Positions 1 through 14,593 of a stretch of DNA of 64,000 nucleotides are shown piece after piece. A program made the position numbers and the translations under genes. Location of the stretch: assembly GCA_039178015.1 (NCBI GenBank), contig JBCDFM010000003.1, forward strand, positions 475-64,474, given 5' to 3'. Origin of the DNA: Pseudomonadota bacterium (GTDB taxonomy: Bacteria > Pseudomonadota > Gammaproteobacteria > Pseudomonadales > Halieaceae). Under the pieces are notes generated by a model. That model saw only the letters and a program-made list of their open reading frames with translations, did no database searches and was not told the DNA's origin. Each line of letters starts with the position of its first letter. The stretch's first letter is position 1.

Positions 1-471
1 CGAGCGAATATCGATAAAGGCTTCATTGAAGACGCAATTCCGGAATTTATTCTGTACTGGCGGGAGCGCGGAGCAGCGCCGCGAGAGCTGAACTCGAAGT
101 TCATCCAACATATTCGTCTGCAGTGGGCCAGGTTTAGCTCAAGCCTGGAGCACAGTACACACCCGAAACGCATCGCAAACGATTGGGAGCCTGCAGGGGA
201 TGTCTACGACATCCTGAGACTCTCCCACATCGATGTTGAGTTTGCTAGGTCGTTGCTGCCAGAATTCATTCTGTATTGGCGCGATAGTAATCAGATGCAC
301 ACATCGTGGAACAGCAAGTTTTTACAACATGTCAAATTCCACTGGGCCAAACGTCATCAGCTAGAAAAGGCAGGGTTACAACATGGCGAACAGCGGAGAC
401 CTCATCCAGCAGGTCGCACGAGAGATCGAAGCCTCCAAGACGACCTCACCGACACCTCCTGGGCAGAGTGA
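1..471 (+). CDS. DnaT-like ssDNA-binding-domain protein, 5'-truncated at window edge, two tandem domain copies
   Basis: Frame +1 is open from base 1 to TGA at 469-471. Hand translation shows an internal duplication (IPEFILYWRERGAAPRELNSKFIQHIRLQWARF / LPEFILYWRDSNQMHTSWNSKFLQHVKFHWAKR) that I associate with DnaT_2-type domains. The last ~30 codons overlap the next gene. Confidence 0.5.
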   Translation, partial: RANIDKGFIEDAIPEFILYWRERGAAPRELNSKFIQHIRLQWARFSSSLEHSTHPKRIANDWEPAGDVYDILRLSHIDVEFARSLLPEFILYWRDSNQMHTSWNSKFLQHVKFHWAKRHQLEKAGLQHGEQRRPHPAGRTRDRSLQDDLTDTSWAE

Positions 472-1054
472 AGAGCCCAGTGTTGCTAACCCTGAAGCGC
501 ATGTGGAAACCATAAATCAGGTTTTTGCTTTATTTAGACTCAACTACCATAACCAGTACTACGCGGCGTTTCCCGATGCAGAACAGCTCAACCAGCTGAA
601 GAAACTGTGGCTGGAAACACTAGGCGACTTTCCAGTTGCGCAAATATTAACCGGAGCAAAACGAGCAATCGAAAACAGCGAGTACCTGCCAACACTGAAT
701 CGCATGCTTGAGTGTTGCCAGCAAGGGTTGACTGAATTCGGGCTCCCCGCGCCTCATGACGCCTACCTCGAAGCCTGTAGCGCTGCCTCACCTCGGGCCG
801 CTCAGAATTGGAGTCATCCCGCTGTCTACCTGGCTGGTCGTGACAGCGGTTGGTACTTACTGAGTAACGAAACCCAGCGAACTAGCTGGCCGGTTTTTCG
901 AGAGTATTACCAGGGTTACTGCACCCGGGTTTTACGAGGGGAAACACTTGAATCACCGCGACAGCAGGTCTTGGAATCACACACCAATCCGGTTCAGTCG
1001 CGGGAGGATCGAATCACAGCGTTGAAGGCATTGAGGGCCGACGTCGACCTCTAA
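383..1054 (+). CDS. Phage lambda replication protein P-like family protein
   Basis: The 223-aa ORF aligns by eye with lambda P over its whole length (INxVF..L...FP, W...F, LP....F..C, GLP, W.....YL). It overlaps the upstream ORF by 89 nt. An alternative in-frame GTG lies at 503. Confidence 0.6.
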   Translation: MANSGDLIQQVAREIEASKTTSPTPPGQSEEPSVANPEAHVETINQVFALFRLNYHNQYYAAFPDAEQLNQLKKLWLETLGDFPVAQILTGAKRAIENSEYLPTLNRMLECCQQGLTEFGLPAPHDAYLEACSAASPRAAQNWSHPAVYLAGRDSGWYLLSNETQRTSWPVFREYYQGYCTRVLRGETLESPRQQVLESHTNPVQSREDRITALKALRADVDL

Positions 1055-7316: not shown

Positions 7317-8585
7317 ATGTTGAATTGGGACGACTACAACACAGCTGAAACAGCACCCGCCGCACCGGCTCCTGCAGCGCTTACGGAAGCTGAATCAGTA
7401 CCCGCTCTGGAAGCAGTAGCACCGGCACCGGAAGCCGAGTCACAAGCCGCTGCCGGGGCCAGCGCACAACCGCCGGCTGGACTAGAAGCAAATATCGCCA
7501 AAGCCCACGAAGCACTGGAGCAGATGGATGTCGCGCCCGGACTAGAGGAACTGGAAATGGGCGCGGCCAGGGTATCGGTCGACGAAAAGGCGATGATCAA
7601 CTGTCGCGCCGATCTCAATCAACTGGTGCCATTCAAATACGATTGGGCCTGGCAGAAATATATCGACGGCTGCGCTAATCACTGGATGCCTCAAGAAATA
7701 AACATGACGGCGGACGTCTCTACCTGGAAGAGTAAGGATGGTTTGACCGAAGACGAGCGCCGTATCGTGATGCGCAATCTGGGTTACTTCTCCACAGCTG
7801 ATTCGCTGGTGGCAAACAATTTGGTATTGGCTATCTACCGTCTCATCACCAACCCAGAGTGTCGCCAATATATACTCCGGCAAGCGTTTGAAGAGGCAAT
7901 CCACACGCATGCTTACCAATACTGCATAGAGTCTTTAGGTATGGACGAGGGTGAAGTATTCAACATGTACCGCGAGATTCCCTCAGTGGCCAAAAAGGCG
8001 GCGTGGAGTATCAGCCACACCCACGCACTGAGCGATCCAAAGTTCAAGACCGGTACACATGAGACCGATCAAGAGCTGCTGCGAAATCTGATCGGCTTCT
8101 ACGCCGTGACGGAGGGGATCTTTTTCTACTGTGGATTCACCCAAATCTTGTCCATGGGTCGGCGCAATAAAATGACCGGCGTTGCAGAGCAGTTTCAATA
8201 CATTCTGCGCGATGAATCCATGCATCTGAACTTCGGCATCGATGTCATCAATCAGATTAAACTGGAAAATCCACACCTGTGGACAGAGTCCTTCAAAGAA
8301 GAAGCGATACAGATGATTCTGGAAGGTACGCAACTGGAAATCGAATATGCGCGAGACACCATGCCGCGAGGCGTCCTGGGAATGAACGCTGGGATGATGG
8401 AGGAATACCTGCACTTCATTGCTAACAGACGACTGTCTCAACTCGGGTTACCTGAACAGTATCCCGGTGCACAGAACCCATTCCCGTGGATGTCGGAAAT
8501 TATGGATCTTCGTAAGGAGAAGAATTTCTTCGAAACCCGGGTAATTGAATACCAGACCGGAGGAGCCCTTAACTGGGGCGACTGA
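7317..8585 (+). CDS. nrdB: Class Ia ribonucleotide reductase beta subunit with long Ala/Pro/Glu-rich N-terminal extension (Pseudomonas type)
   Basis: 422 aa with diiron ligand motifs ([19 protein letters not shown]). [23 protein letters not shown] matches the Pseudomonas-type NrdB. Confidence 0.97.
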
Positions 8586-8600
8586 TGATCATTCTGGAGA

Positions 8601-8849
8601 TTGGGTAGCCACCAGACCTTAACGCCACTTACGACAACCGAGAGCAAAGCCATGGGCAACAGGGGCAAAAATCAGGCCGATACGGAAACGATCTTGATGG
8701 CCCTGGACCAGATCAGTCAAACTATTGATGTCATGACCAGCGTCGTCGGGCGCTTGCGGGCTTACATGAGCCAGCATGAGTCAGACAGTTTGGCCGAAAA
8801 AAACCAGGACCTGGAATCGGATTCCCAGTCAGATCGTATCGTTCACTAA
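8601..8849 (+). CDS. Hypothetical small acidic protein (start uncertain, possibly ATG 8652)
   Basis: 82-aa ORF 16 nt after the nrdB stop, followed 23 nt later by a terminator-like hairpin. No recognisable motifs. Confidence 0.3.
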   Translation: MGSHQTLTPLTTTESKAMGNRGKNQADTETILMALDQISQTIDVMTSVVGRLRAYMSQHESDSLAEKNQDLESDSQSDRIVH

Positions 8850-8871
8850 GATTTGACCAGGATCACCGTGA

Positions 8872-8899
8872 GAGCGAGCTCGCCTCGCTCAGGATTTTT
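8872..8899 (+). terminator. Rho-independent terminator candidate after the nrdAB region
   Basis: Stem GAGCGAG (8872-8878) / CTCGCTC (8884-8890) with a 5-nt loop, followed by AGGATTTTT. Confidence 0.5.
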
Positions 8900-9017
8900 G
8901 CCCCCTAGCAATTCTAACTTTCGCAGCCTCATGCATCTTTTGGCCGAGTAGCAAGGTTAGATCGCTTGTCGATTCCCTCGACTCTGACCAGGAAGCTACG
9001 CTGTAAGCCAAGTGTTC

Positions 9018-9545
9018 CTAGGCAACCTTGACGTGCTGTGAAGCGCTTTTTCTTCGGTTGCGAATAAAGGTTCCTAAGCCTATCGAGAGACGTCGATGGA
9101 TCGGCAGCCGATCAATAAAGAGTCTGCCCTCCAAGTGGTCCAGCTCATGCTGCAGACAGACTGCCTCCATGTCCTCCAGGTCGCGCTCGAAGACTCGCCC
9201 CTCACTATCACTGGCTCGTACTGTGACACGCGTGTCTCGCACTACATTTCCAATTACTCCGGGTACAGATAAACAGCTTTCCTCTACCAAGGCTGGGCGC
9301 TCGCGGCCGACTATTTCCGGGTTAATAAATATCTCCGCCGAGCTTCTGTCATCTGACAAGTCCATTATCAAGATACGGCGGAAGTCCCCGGCCTGGGGGG
9401 CAGAAAGGCCAATACCACCCGAGGCATAAAACGTTTCGACCAAATTATCTAGCGCCCGCTGGAGAGATGCGTCAAACTTTTCGACCGTGCGCGATTGCTG
9501 GCGTAATCGCTTATCGGGGTATTCAATCAACGGAAGCAGGGCCAT
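9018..9545 (-). CDS. def: Peptide deformylase (paralog-like, variant motif 2)
   Basis: 175 aa with GIGLSAPQ (motif 1), EESCLSVPG (motif 2, Gly to Ser) and QHELDHLEG (motif 3). AAGGAG RBS upstream. It lies 62 nt downstream of pucC on the same strand. Confidence 0.9.
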   Translation of the reverse strand: MALLPLIEYPDKRLRQQSRTVEKFDASLQRALDNLVETFYASGGIGLSAPQAGDFRRILIMDLSDDRSSAEIFINPEIVGRERPALVEESCLSVPGVIGNVVRDTRVTVRASDSEGRVFERDLEDMEAVCLQHELDHLEGRLFIDRLPIHRRLSIGLGTFIRNRRKSASQHVKVA

Positions 9546-9607
9546 AGCATTACTCCTTCTGGCGTCCTAATTCAGGGAATATCAGGCCTGTGAAGCAGAG
9601 GCAGCTC

Positions 9608-11041
9608 TCAGACCGTGGCATCGCGCATGTCTGCCCCTCTACCCAAAGCCGTGTCGTGTCTCACTGCGCCGGCTGCCTCTCGAATCAGAGGCCAGGTAGC
9701 GATAATCGCGATGACTAATAGTGCCATCTCTAGCGCGTAAACAGTCAAATAGCCGCCGGCAACCGACGGGAAGCCCCAGAGCTCGCCACCTTCTGTGATC
9801 AATGCGTTAACCACATCTCGTAGTGTTCCGCTAAGTGCCATGCCGATTCCCACGGCCGTGGCTTGTACAGCTCCCCATGAGCCTAAAGCCAACCCCACCT
9901 GCTCTTTAGGGGCGCGGTTCATCGCAGCTGTCAGCGTCCCGTGACTGAACAAAGCTGTACCAAAGCCGATTCCGAAATTACCCGCTAAAAACAAGATCGT
10001 CATATCGCTTGGCACAGCAGCGATCACTAACAGGAAGGCAGGAAGACCTATGAGTGCACCCAACTGTGCTACCCGATAGGGTTCACTCCCCCGCCCAAGC
10101 ACATGCGATGCATAGCCAAATCCCATTAGGCCACCGAGTGCCAGCAGCGCAGTCAGCAGCGTTGTAGAGCTCACGGTAAGGCCCAAGACCTGTCCGCCGA
10201 ATGGTTCAAGTAGAATATCAGCCATCCCAAACGCCATGCTGCCCAAGCCAACAACTACTAGACGCCTTATGGCATAGCTGCCAGCGCAGAAATCACGCCA
10301 AGAGTCGCGAAAGCTCGGATCTTCTACCACAGGCGCTCTTCCCCTTGGCGGGTTACGCGCTTCTTGCTTCCAGATCGCAATAACGTTTAGCAATAAACAG
10401 CTGACGGCAGCAGCCTGGATCACCTGCACTAATTTGCTATGCGAAAAGTCTTCCAAGGCCATCCCAAAAATCAGCGCGCTGATCATCATGCCCAGTAGCA
10501 GCATCACATACATCAACCCTACTACCCGAGGTTGAGATTCTTGCGGTGATAAATCCGTCGCTAGCGCTAAGCCCGCCGTCTGCACCGTATGAATTCCCGC
10601 CCCCACCAGCAGAAATGCAAAACCCGCAGCGAGCTGTCCGACTATGACAGGTGCATTAGAAGCCTGTCCTTGACCTCCCAATACCAAGAGCGCAAATGGC
10701 ATAATGGCGAAACCACCGAACTGCAACAGCGACCCTTTCCAAACAAACGGCACACGGCGCCACCCCAGCTCACATCGGTGCGTATCTGATTTAAAGCCGA
10801 TAACAGCACGCAGCGGAGCAAATAAAACCGGAAGAGCTAACATGATGCCCACGAGTGTGGCAGGCACATTCAGCTCGACGATCATTACCCTGTTGAGAGT
10901 TCCTACCAGCAGCACCATCGACATACCGACAGACACCTGAAACAGCGAGAGTCGAATCAGACGATGTAGCGGTAGCTCTGGCGTTGCCACATCCGCGAAA
11001 GGTAAAAATCGCGAACCCAAGGTGGCCCATGCCATGACCAT
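9608..11041 (-). CDS. pucC: PucC / BCD-family (bacteriochlorophyll delivery) MFS protein
   Basis: N-terminus LFQVSVGMSMVLLVGTLNRVMIVELNVPATL...APLRAVIGFKSDTHRCELGWRRVPFVWKGSLLQFGGFAIMPFAL is the PucC/LhaA signature. The start is moved from 11101 to ATG 11041 (MVMAW...), which is preceded by GGAGAAAAGG. It lies downstream of pucBA. Confidence 0.85.
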   Translation of the reverse strand: MVMAWATLGSRFLPFADVATPELPLHRLIRLSLFQVSVGMSMVLLVGTLNRVMIVELNVPATLVGIMLALPVLFAPLRAVIGFKSDTHRCELGWRRVPFVWKGSLLQFGGFAIMPFALLVLGGQGQASNAPVIVGQLAAGFAFLLVGAGIHTVQTAGLALATDLSPQESQPRVVGLMYVMLLLGMMISALIFGMALEDFSHSKLVQVIQAAAVSCLLLNVIAIWKQEARNPPRGRAPVVEDPSFRDSWRDFCAGSYAIRRLVVVGLGSMAFGMADILLEPFGGQVLGLTVSSTTLLTALLALGGLMGFGYASHVLGRGSEPYRVAQLGALIGLPAFLLVIAAVPSDMTILFLAGNFGIGFGTALFSHGTLTAAMNRAPKEQVGLALGSWGAVQATAVGIGMALSGTLRDVVNALITEGGELWGFPSVAGGYLTVYALEMALLVIAIIATWPLIREAAGAVRHDTALGRGADMRDATV

Positions 11042-11058
11042 CCTTTTCTCCAGGCGAT

Positions 11059-11181
11059 TCACTGAACGACACCCCACGCAAGACCGGTTAAGGAAAACCA
11101 AACAATAAAAACAACCACTGTGCTCAAGGAGAAGCGCGGCTGAAGAAGGCCCATATCATCAAACAAGCAAACAGCTGACAT
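11059..11181 (-). CDS. Candidate 40-aa single-TM peptide upstream of pucC (speculative)
   Basis: Hand translation gives MSAVCLFDDMGLLQPRFSLSTVVVFIVWFSLTGLAWGVVQ. The stop lies 17 nt before the pucC ATG. RBS is weak and there is no homology evidence. Confidence 0.2.
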   Translation of the reverse strand: MSAVCLFDDMGLLQPRFSLSTVVVFIVWFSLTGLAWGVVQ

Positions 11182-11234
11182 TGCCTGGAGTAACTCCGCT
11201 AGCCCCGCACGAGACACGCTGTCTCAAAAGCGAA

Positions 11235-11852
11235 TCAGCGTTCCTTATTACGAATAAGTAACGGTAGACCAAAACTCGAGCTTCGCTCGCCTTTAGGTTT
11301 AGTCAGCAGGGGTATGCCAAAGCTACTCTCTTTCTTTTTTTTCTCCGTCAAGGGCTTCAACCCAATCATGGAAGACAGTGGCGTAGGACCCTTACTCAGA
11401 CCACTGCCAAACATGAGCCAACTGCTTCGCGTGAGTGGGGGAAACAAGCGCGAGAGCATGCTTAGCCTGCGCGTTGCAAGAGCTGGCATTCCAATCAAAG
11501 AGGAAAGCGGCGTAGGGTTTCTGGGCGCAACCTGCGGGGAACCACCTGCATCCAGCGGGTTGGCGGATTCCAGTGCACTGGTAGCGCTCGCACCGGTGCC
11601 AAACTCAGCGTTCACTACAACAATATGGCGCCCTTGCGCTAAACCGCGAGAAAACACTACTGCCAGACTGCCGTTTAATTCCTCCACGCCGACATCGACT
11701 TTTTTAATCAAGCCAGCAGGCGTAATGGTTTCACCCATCACATCGGGACTGACATGAACAATCAGTTCATCCTTAAAACCTCGATCAAGCAGCGCTTGTA
11801 CCGCAGCGGCGGCTTGCTCACCAGTTTGGTACATCCGTCCAACGTAGGCCAT
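11235..11852 (-). CDS. Uncharacterised protein inside the puc locus: globular N-domain plus C-terminal repeated [ST][ST]-x-x-G-x-P-x-L motifs
   Basis: 205-aa ORF with a GAGAGG RBS. C-terminal repeats are PTPLSSLIGMPAL, PTPLSSMIGLKPL, SSFGIPLL and SSFGLPLL. It is on the same strand as pucA and pucC and lies between them. Confidence 0.6.
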   Translation of the reverse strand: MAYVGRMYQTGEQAAAAVQALLDRGFKDELIVHVSPDVMGETITPAGLIKKVDVGVEELNGSLAVVFSRGLAQGRHIVVVNAEFGTGASATSALESANPLDAGGSPQVAPRNPTPLSSLIGMPALATRRLSMLSRLFPPLTRSSWLMFGSGLSKGPTPLSSMIGLKPLTEKKKKESSFGIPLLTKPKGERSSSFGLPLLIRNKER

Positions 11853-12018
11853 AGGCGCCTCTCATAGAGCTTGTTAGCAATACATCTTCTATGGCTCTCC
11901 CAAAAGAGAAAGCCGGTCACATTTGCACCACCGACGAGCGACGCACCAGTGAACCGAGTGCGCCGGCGCCCGTGGAGCTGATGGACTACCCCACCTTCAT
12001 ACCGCGTATTGGTCGCAC

Positions 12019-12039
12019 GCTAGATAGCACTTATCTAGC
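12019..12039 (-). other. Stem-loop downstream of pucA (possible mRNA-stabilising or attenuating hairpin)
   Basis: Perfect 8-bp stem GCTAGATA / TATCTAGC with a 5-nt loop, 46 nt after the pucA stop. There is no U-tract, so it is not a canonical intrinsic terminator. Confidence 0.3.
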
Positions 12040-12084
12040 AGCAAGACTCGATAAACAAGCCTTACTAAATCAATCCCAGGCTCG

Positions 12085-12228
12085 CTATCCGCCCCAGAAT
12101 TGCGACATCCAACTCGTATTATTCAATATCAGGTAGTGTATTAGGAGTGAGGTGATGGCAGCACTGCTCAAGAACAGCGGCAAACCAACTGTGGGCTTAA
12201 CCACACACCAGATTCTTCCGTTATTCAT
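12085..12228 (-). CDS. pucA: Light-harvesting complex 2 (LH2) alpha polypeptide
   Basis: Hand-translated 47 aa: MNNGRIWCVVKPTVGLPLFLSSAAITSLLIHYLILNNTSWMSQFWGG. It aligns without gaps to Rhodobacter LH2 alpha (M.NGKIW.VVKPTVG.PLFLS.A.I.S..IH) with His31 conserved. The ATG lies 11 nt after the pucB stop, behind GGAGATAGAGA. It is below the ORF-track cutoff. Confidence 0.88.
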   Translation of the reverse strand: MNNGRIWCVVKPTVGLPLFLSSAAITSLLIHYLILNNTSWMSQFWGG

Positions 12229-12239
12229 TCTCTATCTCC

Positions 12240-12404
12240 TCATCCAAACCAGGGTGAATAAATGAACGCCAATGCGTGTGCGATCACTGCGATGAAGAAG
12301 AACACTCGCGAGCCGTCGATGACGTGCTTGTGAAGCTCTTCCGATTCTTTGATCGTCAGACCCGTGGGCCATACGCGATCTGGATCATCCAAGTCAGTAG
12401 CCAT
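12240..12404 (-). CDS. pucB: Light-harvesting complex 2 (LH2) beta polypeptide
   Basis: Hand-translated 54 aa: [54 protein letters not shown]. It matches LH beta chains (VWP.GLT..E.EE.HK, ..RVF, A.IAH.L, PW.G) including the BChl-binding His. Strong RBS GGAGGAAACTT-ATG. It is below the ORF-track cutoff. Confidence 0.9.
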
Positions 12405-12544
12405 AAGTTTCCTCCACGAAATACTGGCCGAATATGAAGCAATTTAGACCTCATCTTCACCAACCGACGGGCGTTAGTTGCTCGTTTTGTAGGGTCAATC
12501 ATGCACTGCGATACCGCAGTTGCTAGTTTGCCAACCCTAAATTC

Positions 12545-12573
12545 ACAGTAGCAGCATTAATAAAAGCAGTCAA
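12545..12573 (-). promoter_or_regulatory. Candidate sigma70-type puc promoter (-35 TTGACT, 17-nt spacer, -10 TACTGT)
   Basis: The minus strand reads TTGACT-gcttttattaatgctgc-TACTGT. This predicts a leader of about 130 nt before the pucB ATG. Confidence 0.3.
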
Positions 12574-12593
12574 GACTTCTTGTCATTCTATAC

Positions 12594-12611
12594 TGTAAAC
12601 TAAAGTTGACA
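12594..12611 (-). promoter_or_regulatory. Perfect TGT-N12-ACA palindrome (PpsR/CrtJ-type operator) upstream of pucB
   Basis: TGTAAACTAAAGTTGACA at 12594-12611, about 20 nt upstream of the candidate -35. A one-mismatch copy (TGT-N12-GCA) lies at 12488-12505. Confidence 0.35.
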
Positions 12612-12654
12612 TTCTGGAGATGGCGCTCCAAATCACCCCGCAAGCGGGCAGGCA

Positions 12655-13206
12655 CTATCGCGCGTCACGTAAAACCCAGGCATAACGGCGGCACTGGGCA
12701 TCTAATTCTTCTGGATTTCGCGTGGGTGAACATCTTCCCGGAGCCAACGAGGTCACATAAAGGGCCAAGCACTCTTCTTCACTCAGATCCTCCGGCGTTT
12801 TGTTGAAATAGTGCTTCGATCCATGAATCAGTCCGCGACCCCCTTCAAAAGGCAAGAAATGCATGTACAGAGCCAGCATCAACTTCCTCCCTAGACGCTT
12901 TGGTAGAAGGTAACGCCAAAGCAGCACGCGAGCCTGCATGACCTGCGCATCGGCGTCATCGCCCTCCAGGTGGACAATTACTTTACGGCAAACAATATGC
13001 GTAAAAGCGTCCTCTTGAAGACGTAAGACCAGCTTGACGAGCGCAGCAGGTGGTTCAAGTTCGCTCGGATTAAGTCGCTTGAGTAACCGATCGACCTCAG
13101 GCTGCAAGTCAAAATAGGCCGTCTTGCAATACCAGAACAACGCCACTAAGGCGACAAGGACAAATGCAATCATCAGCGCGAACAGCGCAAGCGGTAGAGA
13201 CATCAT
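12655..13206 (-). CDS. Membrane-anchored, degenerate GT51 (peptidoglycan transglycosylase)-like domain protein
   Basis: 183 aa with an N-terminal TM helix. QEDAFTHIV resembles the EDxxFxxH motif. LPFEGGRGLIHGSKHYFNKTPEDLSEEECLALYVTSLAPGR resembles the GT51 G.GxxGxxxAAxxYFxKxxxxLxxxExAxLAxxxxxP block. It is shorter than MtgA and lacks a clear GxSTITQQ motif. Confidence 0.45.
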   Translation of the reverse strand: MMSLPLALFALMIAFVLVALVALFWYCKTAYFDLQPEVDRLLKRLNPSELEPPAALVKLVLRLQEDAFTHIVCRKVIVHLEGDDADAQVMQARVLLWRYLLPKRLGRKLMLALYMHFLPFEGGRGLIHGSKHYFNKTPEDLSEEECLALYVTSLAPGRCSPTRNPEELDAQCRRYAWVLRDAR

Positions 13207-13267
13207 TATGTTCCTTTGGGCCTAAGCCGCGCCGTATAAAGCAGGAGAAGCTTTGTTGTGCTGCCAG

Positions 13268-14593
13268 CTATTCAATAGCAATACTCTCAAGGCCAAACTT
13301 TATCTCTCGTTGATCAGAGCTATCGCCCACATCGGCTGGCTTTAGGGGCGAACGGTGCAAAAATTCCAGGTAAACATACTCTTGATCAAGAGCTCTTCTA
13401 GGCAGATCTACCGCTACCTTTGAGAGGTCATAGTTTCCGAGGTCTGCTCCATTGATACGCACCGCCGTGGGCTCTACCTCGCCAAAATACCGGCCACGAA
13501 TCTTCAGCGCAGCCTTACTACGAAGCGCCAGCTCAGGTGATGGTTTGAACTTAATGCAGGATTTTCTACCCAATGACCATCTACCCCAATCTTCCGGAAA
13601 AGCCCAGCCGTAAGCCAAATATAGATGATTCTCCATAGAGTGAGCCTGGCGCAGGCTACCGTCCCAGTCCTGCAGGCGCTGAGATAACAGGAAATACGCG
13701 AGGGCGTTCTCGAACATGCCCCAATCCCGAACAAATCGAAGCGCAGAGTTGTTTTCTATTGAGCGGCCTGCAACAACGAGATTAAAGAAGCCCTCGGATT
13801 GAGGGTCTTGCTCGGTAATATCACACAGAGAACGCACTTCGTCTCGACTCATGGGAAGCAACCCCTGAGTCTGTTCGTCCATCAGATATAGCCGCCAGCT
13901 TTCACGATCAATCAGATCCAGTAATTCCCGGCTGCTGGCACCTGCCCGACGCAAGTGCATGGGTGACACTTCGATAATCATGACGAGATCATCTGCGCTG
14001 GAGTGAATCAAATCCCCGAGACCCCACAAAACATCGCATTCCGCCCCCTGCGTGTCGACTTTAAGAAAGTTGATTCGCTGGTACTGATCTCCAATAAAAC
14101 GTGAACCATTGGCTACTCGAATGGATTGGGACGGCCCGGACCCGCCATCTGAATACAGAGAATGATCTCCACGATTACGTTCGTTCAAGAACAGCTTGGC
14201 TTCACTATCTCGTCGTCCCAACGCAAGTTGAAAACAGCGTAGATTGTCGCATTGGTTAATCTCTCTATTGGTTTGCAACAGTGCAAAATTATCCGCTTCC
14301 GGCTCGAATGCCAGTACTGCACCGGCTGCTCCCACTCGCTGCGAGGCAAGCAGCGAGAAATAACCAATATTCGCGCCCACATCGACGAACACATCGCCGG
14401 GCCTCAGCATTGCGAGCAAAAAGTAGGTCTCCAGCGGCTCCCAAATTCCATTGCTCGCAATGGCAGTCGAGACATGCAAATCAGACTGAGTGTGAACTCG
14501 CATTTGCGGCGGATTATCCACTCCCTCGATCTGCAGCGAATAGATCTCTTTCCTGGCGTGTTTACTCATATCGAGCTGTTCACAGCGTTCCAT
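13268..14593 (-). CDS. FkbM-family SAM-dependent methyltransferase with ~150-aa C-terminal extension
   Basis: VFVDVGANIGYFSLLA, AFEPEADNFALLQTN and FLKVDTQGAECDVL are FkbM signatures. The C-terminal domain contains GWAFPEDWGRWSLG. An alternative start at 14569 would remove the 14-nt overlap with the upstream MFS gene. Confidence 0.8.
   Translation of the reverse strand: MERCEQLDMSKHARKEIYSLQIEGVDNPPQMRVHTQSDLHVSTAIASNGIWEPLETYFLLAMLRPGDVFVDVGANIGYFSLLASQRVGAAGAVLAFEPEADNFALLQTNREINQCDNLRCFQLALGRRDSEAKLFLNERNRGDHSLYSDGGSGPSQSIRVANGSRFIGDQYQRINFLKVDTQGAECDVLWGLGDLIHSSADDLVMIIEVSPMHLRRAGASSRELLDLIDRESWRLYLMDEQTQGLLPMSRDEVRSLCDITEQDPQSEGFFNLVVAGRSIENNSALRFVRDWGMFENALAYFLLSQRLQDWDGSLRQAHSMENHLYLAYGWAFPEDWGRWSLGRKSCIKFKPSPELALRSKAALKIRGRYFGEVEPTAVRINGADLGNYDLSKVAVDLPRRALDQEYVYLEFLHRSPLKPADVGDSSDQREIKFGLESIAIE

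Follow-up and report, generated by a model that had tools for sequence, protein, structure and literature searches.

Gene content of the locus

The window analysed here, the whole 64,000-nucleotide stretch of DNA under study, carries five adjacent genes on its minus strand in the order pucB-pucA-X-pucC-def (12612..9018), behind a putative promoter that overlaps an operator of the PpsR/CrtJ type. All five open reading frames are intact, and we regard them as very probably a functional operon for the LH2 peripheral antenna of an uncultured gammaproteobacterium of the marine family Halieaceae (OM60/NOR5). The features are as follows:

12585..12612, minus strand: putative sigma-70-like promoter (-35 ATGTCA, 16-nt spacer, -10 TAGAAT)
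12594..12611: palindrome 1, of the PpsR/CrtJ type, TGTCAACTTTAGTTTACA, a perfect TGT-N12-ACA
12568..12585: palindrome 2, degenerate, TGACAAGAAGTCTTGACT, with two mismatches to TGT-N12-ACA
12405..12578, minus strand: long 5' leader of pucB, conserved against the relative L003
12240..12404, minus strand: pucB, LH2 beta, 54 aa (Pfam LHC and PDB matches)
12085..12228, minus strand: pucA, LH2 alpha, 47 aa (Pfam LHC and PDB matches)
11235..11852, minus strand: X, a puc-linked gene for a protein of 205 aa, between pucA and pucC
9608..11041, minus strand: pucC, LH2 assembly factor (MFS-like), 477 aa (PF03209, 476 bits, 1e-142)
9018..9545, minus strand: def, puc-linked peptide deformylase, 175 aa (PF01327; TIGR00079)

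An earlier note on this DNA, made from the sequence alone, had placed two small reading frames at 12404..12240 and 12228..12085 of the minus strand; both are present with exactly those coordinates and translations, as are the ribosome-binding site that it saw before the beta ATG (GGAGGAAACTT) and the 11-nt spacer between the beta stop and the alpha ATG (GGAGATAGAGA). Its description of the pair as unannotated is correct for the reading-frame track supplied with the sequence and incorrect for GenBank, where, on a contig of 64,558 bp, both peptides are annotated as light-harvesting: the beta as 'light-harvesting antenna LH1, beta subunit' (MEM1155144.1) and the alpha as 'light-harvesting protein' (MEM1155145.1).

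The start of pucC was set at 11041, in agreement with the N-termini of its homologues and with a ribosome-binding site; the gene lies about 1 kb downstream of pucBA on the same strand, and its product would assist LH2 assembly. PucC and the puc-linked deformylase thus lie in a part of the window that had been described as ordinary heterotroph genome, a description that does fit the remainder, which consists of housekeeping genes (nrdAB, fadBA, an RND efflux pump, rho, ubiD, hemCDXY and others). Within the 64 kb window there are no puf, bch or crt genes, nor any Photo_RC domain; puc operons usually lie apart from the photosynthesis gene cluster (PMC12654162).

Several minor features accompany the operon. 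The spacer between pucA and X (11853-12084, 232 nt) is poorly conserved against L003, except that a block around TGGTGCGTCGCTCG and the last 35 nt ahead of the X start codon are retained; it contains an AT-rich hairpin (CTAGATA/TATCTAG) lacking a T-run. A reading frame of 183 aa (12655-13206, minus strand) matches only the C-terminal half of a transglycosylase domain; it adjoins the puc block in L001-L003 as well, and in L016 it is found on the opposite strand. Near the window edge, the reading frame at 383-1054 (plus strand) matches replication protein P of phage lambda (PF06992, 3.8e-10) and is possibly a prophage remnant.

The light-harvesting pair

Both peptides exceed the Pfam cut-off of 23 bits for PF00556 (LHC), with 31.8 and 38.7 bits. 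When compared with all PDB chains, the beta finds its best match in the Rps. palustris LH2 chain 7ze3_B (7e-24) and the alpha in 7ze8_A, also of Rps. palustris LH2 (6e-17). E-values of the beta range from 1e-24 to 1e-10 against LH2 chains and reach 3.8e-7 for the best LH1 chain, while the alpha matches LH1 chains with E>0.7 at best. The proposal that this is an LH2 (puc) pair, not an LH1 pair, is therefore strongly supported by the Pfam LHC, NCBIfam and PDB comparisons. A gap-free alignment to Rba. sphaeroides LH2, which the earlier note had claimed, fits the equal-length spans obtained against 7pbw (beta 9-54 against 2-47; alpha 1-47 against 1-47).

The name LH1 in GenBank arises because the beta just clears the cut-off of the NCBIfam pufB model NF040862 (a marginal 62.1 bits against 61), and this score and the name itself are the grounds on which the pair might be read as pufBA. 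We consider that reading scarcely credible: the pufA model fails on the alpha (20.3 bits against a cut-off of 35), which matches LH2 at 6e-17; the beta's LH1 matches, at 4e-7 or worse, fall well behind its LH2 matches; the alpha N-terminus, MNNGRIW, is of the LH2 type, as the earlier note had recognized; and pucC is adjacent, with pufLM absent from the window. Together, the PDB E-values, the pufA model, the N-terminus and the gene context effectively refute an LH1 identity. By sequence comparison MEM1155144.1 is misnamed in GenBank and its true class is LH2, a naming problem that we flag here; misnaming of LH2 beta as LH1 in public annotation is probably systematic. Other members of the beta's 90% cluster bear the name 'LH1 beta subunit' too.

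The bacteriochlorophyll-ligating histidines that had been picked out, alpha His31 and beta His43 (in 'AVIAH'), are present, and in the alignment they stand in register with histidines of the Rps. palustris chains. Beta His25, Arg33 and His43 correspond to His12, Arg20 and His30 of the Rbl. acidophilus beta. Also in register with the structures are the residues of the B800 site, namely alpha Met1 and Asn3 (in the start MNN) and beta His25 and Arg33; the residue roles at the B800 and B850 sites are described in PMC8775250 and PMC9618040, the beta residues of the B800 site in Rba. sphaeroides being His22 and Arg30 (PMC8775250). As judged from the alignments, the two peptides carry all the residues that would bind three bacteriochlorophylls per pair: alpha-His31 and beta-His43 would be the ligands of the strongly coupled pair, and B800 would be bound at alpha-Met1, with alpha-Asn3, beta-His25 and beta-Arg33. 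The alpha/beta pairs are predicted to assemble into a nonameric ring, because no gap interrupts the alignment of the alpha, from residue 1 on, with the alphas of nonameric LH2.

The C-terminal part of the alpha contains Phe44 and Trp45, and Gly47 is the last residue of the peptide. With Phe/Trp as opposed to Tyr/Trp at these positions, one hydrogen bond to the coupled pair would be lost, and the band of that pair would therefore be blue-shifted, to an expected 835-840 nm or so; the basis of this prediction is mutagenesis in other species, reportedly by Fowler et al. in 1992. In relatives, alpha 44/45 is mostly Phe-Phe, Phe-Met or Phe-Ile, which is a B800-820-like pattern; the variants seen in the window and loci L003-L018 are FW, FF, FI, FM and YW. 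Of the clade's 13 alphas in this same set, 12 have Cys8 (IWCVV), a position occupied by Thr in Rps. palustris, and one relative (L014, 6027-6413) encodes an alpha of 128 aa with a long Ala/Pro-rich C-terminal extension. Against L003, a relative at 79% identity, dN/dS is 0.11 for pucB, 0.09 for pucA and 0.08 for X, and hence these genes are being maintained by purifying selection.

Putative promoter and operators, and the leader

The putative promoter (12612..12585) is the sole promoter-like match within 8500..13400, is conserved in L003 and overlaps palindrome 1 (12611..12594). Palindrome 2 begins 8 nt after palindrome 1, which gives a start-to-start phasing of 26 nt. TGT-N12-ACA palindromes set 8 bp apart and lying over a promoter form the layout of PpsR/CrtJ operators in purple bacteria. 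Ten of the 13 related loci compared carry at least one TGT-N12-ACA site in the 400 nt before pucB (binomial P about 2e-8 against a background of 0.28 per kb). Enrichment is significant only at this position across loci: window-wide there is none (10 sites, 12 expected). Perfect tandem pairs with the 26 nt phasing stand upstream of pucB in L006, L009 and L012, and in L013 another perfect pair with the same phasing lies upstream of X. Transcription would begin at the sigma-70-like promoter, and because the two palindromes overlap it, repression of the operon is probable when oxygen or light levels are high.

The leader is conserved as well, being 90% identical to L003 over 207 nt and 97-100% identical over the last 100 nt. 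Silent-site divergence from L003 is low in pucB (dS 0.22) and saturated in pucA, X and the upstream gene (dS 1.6-2.4); the segment comprising promoter, leader and pucB (12240-12611) thus shows far stronger silent-site conservation than its neighbours, which suggests either nucleotide-level constraint or recent recombination. A search of the leader for an RNA element gave no Rfam match, and the leader folds no better than its shuffles (z -0.8).

The puc-linked deformylase and protein X

Def scores 141.9 bits against TIGR00079 (cut-off 103.95) and has its three catalytic motifs intact, GIGLSAPQ, ESCLS and HELDH. At the second of these the canonical deformylase motif is EGCLS; ESCLS is found in 117 of the 120 nearest Def homologues, and the nearest homologues are 34-45% identical to E. 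coli Def. With Def as an independent query, all three of the nearest homologues sampled lie in a puc block, after pucC. No paper in the literature searched links a deformylase with puc or LH2. As a hypothesis drawn from gene neighbourhood alone, Def most likely deformylates alpha-fMet1 for the B800 ligand: the ESCLS-type enzyme, co-transcribed with the antenna genes, would strip the formyl group from alpha-fMet1, and the free amine of the deformylated Met1 would then give rise to the N-carboxy-Met ligand. N-carboxy-Met1 is the B800 ligand in LH2 of both Rba. sphaeroides and Rps. palustris (PMC8775250, PMC9618040). These structural papers contain no account of the ligand's origin, PMC8775250 arguing only that some N-carboxylation mechanism exists, and a dedicated deformylase would be a directly testable first step towards it.

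Protein X has no Pfam or NCBIfam match. It consists of an N-terminal alpha/beta domain followed by tandem, Ser-containing tail units of 15-16 residues, xPLSSxFGLPLLS(K/R)xx. AlphaFold predicts the domain, of about 100 aa, with confidence (pLDDT about 90) and the tail as disordered or extended; a fold search with the domain returned only weak PII-like matches, which are not significant (best E 0.3). A word search yielded about 40 homologues, whereas an exhaustive profile search at E<=1e-30 shows that the family comprises at least 522 clusters at 50% identity. All of the homologues lack a name, and no named match has a cultured strain as its source; a search of species-representative genomes for close relatives of X found one locus only. 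What emerges is a large nameless family tied to LH2. Judged by gene neighbourhood alone, X would most likely work on the cytoplasmic face, either in LH2 assembly or as an accessory subunit, possibly as a ribbon like the gamma of Rps. palustris.

The gamma of Rps. palustris LH2 wraps the ring as a ribbon built from six Ser-containing repeats of 16 residues each, which ligate additional bacteriochlorophyll, and gamma-type accessory subunits are reported as confined to Rhodopseudomonas (PMC9618040). Both gamma (RPA1495) and X have tandem Ser-containing repeats of about 16 residues that lack predicted secondary structure, both are genetically associated with LH2, and in the best register the repeats of X share G-x-P-L-[IL]-x-K with the gamma repeat used for comparison (EYKGxSGxPLILKQEG); X differs in its additional folded N-terminal domain of about 100 aa. 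By analogy, the Ser repeats of X may bind extra bacteriochlorophyll as those of gamma do. The analogy is attractive, but tests of homology between X and gamma gave it no support: profiles of the X family and of the 16-residue repeat gave nothing significant against the PDB, nor did hmmsearch with its filters off, and in a cyclic PSSM permutation test 2205 of 20000 permutations score as well (p about 0.11).

Comparison with known LH2 systems

The best sequence matches of both chains are to LH2 of Rps. palustris (PucAB a/b/d/e; PDB 7zcu, 7zdi, 7ze3, 7ze8), with which they share the beta N-terminal DDPxxVWPTGLT, the alpha MNxGRIWxVVKPTVGLPL, all pigment ligands and, by alignment, the nonameric type. 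The alpha of the window differs in its length of 47 aa with no C-terminal tail, in Phe44/Trp45 and in Cys8; no gamma homologue was found, and the operon has the repeat protein X and a deformylase instead. Like the classical puc operons (pucBAC of Rba. sphaeroides; pucBACDE of Rba. capsulatus), the operon has pucB before pucA, pucC further downstream and putative operators of the PpsR/CrtJ type (TGT-N12-ACA), but unlike them it has an extra gene between pucA and pucC and a deformylase after pucC. The five-gene architecture pucB-pucA-X-pucC-def is apparently a variant with no earlier description. The pucBA pair itself is an ordinary LH2 pair, adding one more LH2-bearing Halieaceae MAG, and the conserved pucBA-X-pucC-def block outweighs it in importance.

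Twelve contexts were examined: X adjoins the LHC gene pair in every one, in 11 it is also next to PucC, and in 10 Def comes immediately after PucC. The commonest order is B-A-X-C-def; X-B-A-C-def, B-A-C-X and X-B-A followed by a transposase gene also occur. The module spans MAGs labelled as Pseudomonadota and as Myxococcota, and in one of the latter (L004) the block abuts pufLMC; the literature searched yielded nothing on puc genes in Myxococcota.

Host and alternative explanations

Proteins 88-91% identical to NrdA of the window come from MAGs named Halieaceae, Halioglobus, Haliea or Pseudomonadales, which places the host among the OM60/NOR5 gammaproteobacteria. For this clade both aerobic anoxygenic phototrophy and pucAB have already been published (PMC3679898 Table 3; PMC2654016), so that pucBA is to be expected here, and the assertion that it redefines the host was overstated. 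Specifically, pucAB is described from the NOR5-3 lineage, to which C. litoralis KT71 belongs, Pseudohaliea rubra has an antenna with bands at 804/821 nm, and blue-shifted antenna variants are known in the Halieaceae (PMC3679898, PMC2654016, PMC12654162); the pair described here comes from the same bacterial family as these LH2/LH3 antennas, whose puc genes likewise lie outside the photosynthesis gene cluster (PMC3679898, PMC2654016, PMC12654162). We infer that the host organism is phototrophic.

Nevertheless, a host that no longer makes bacteriochlorophyll might carry the puc genes as relics or silent cargo, as bch and puf are absent from the window and KT71 carries pucBA while forming no LH2 under laboratory conditions (PMC2654016), from which it follows that gene carriage is no guarantee of expression. 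This is very unlikely, given the dN/dS of pucB, pucA and X, the five intact reading frames, the conservation of promoter, operator and leader against L003, and the presence of pufLMC in the pucAB-carrying genomes of PMC3679898 Table 3. More improbable still is that the puc block reached the contig by mis-assembly, mis-binning or a very recent foreign insertion. The beta does fall in a 90%-identity cluster with proteins of alphaproteobacterial MAGs, and GC dips slightly, to 0.50, at 12-14 kb; against this, Halieaceae-like core genes lie on both sides within a single 64.5-kb contig, GC is uniform elsewhere, and the gene order is repeated in two other assemblies and in the 79%-identity relative.

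A further alternative concerns only the two additional genes. X and def could be hitch-hiking neighbours with no LH2-specific role, def being merely a second housekeeping deformylase; paralogues of def are indeed common in bacteria, and X has no recognizable functional domain. We think this unlikely, since the linkage outlasts rearrangements that place X before pucB, after pucA or after pucC, recurs in MAGs labelled as different phyla, and is accompanied by a near-constant ESCLS motif in the nearest Def homologues, every sampled context of which is linked to puc. A bolder reading, which we hold to be less likely than not, is that the puc operons of many environmental phototrophs encode two undescribed helpers of LH2, a dedicated Def acting on alpha-Met1 and X wrapping or scaffolding the ring.

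At two of the loci, L013 and L018, the puc block adjoins genes for a bacteriophytochrome, a haem oxygenase and a PAS/HTH regulator, an arrangement reminiscent of the light-regulated puc clusters of Rps. palustris; TspO is also encoded near the puc block in L013, and RuBisCO in L018.
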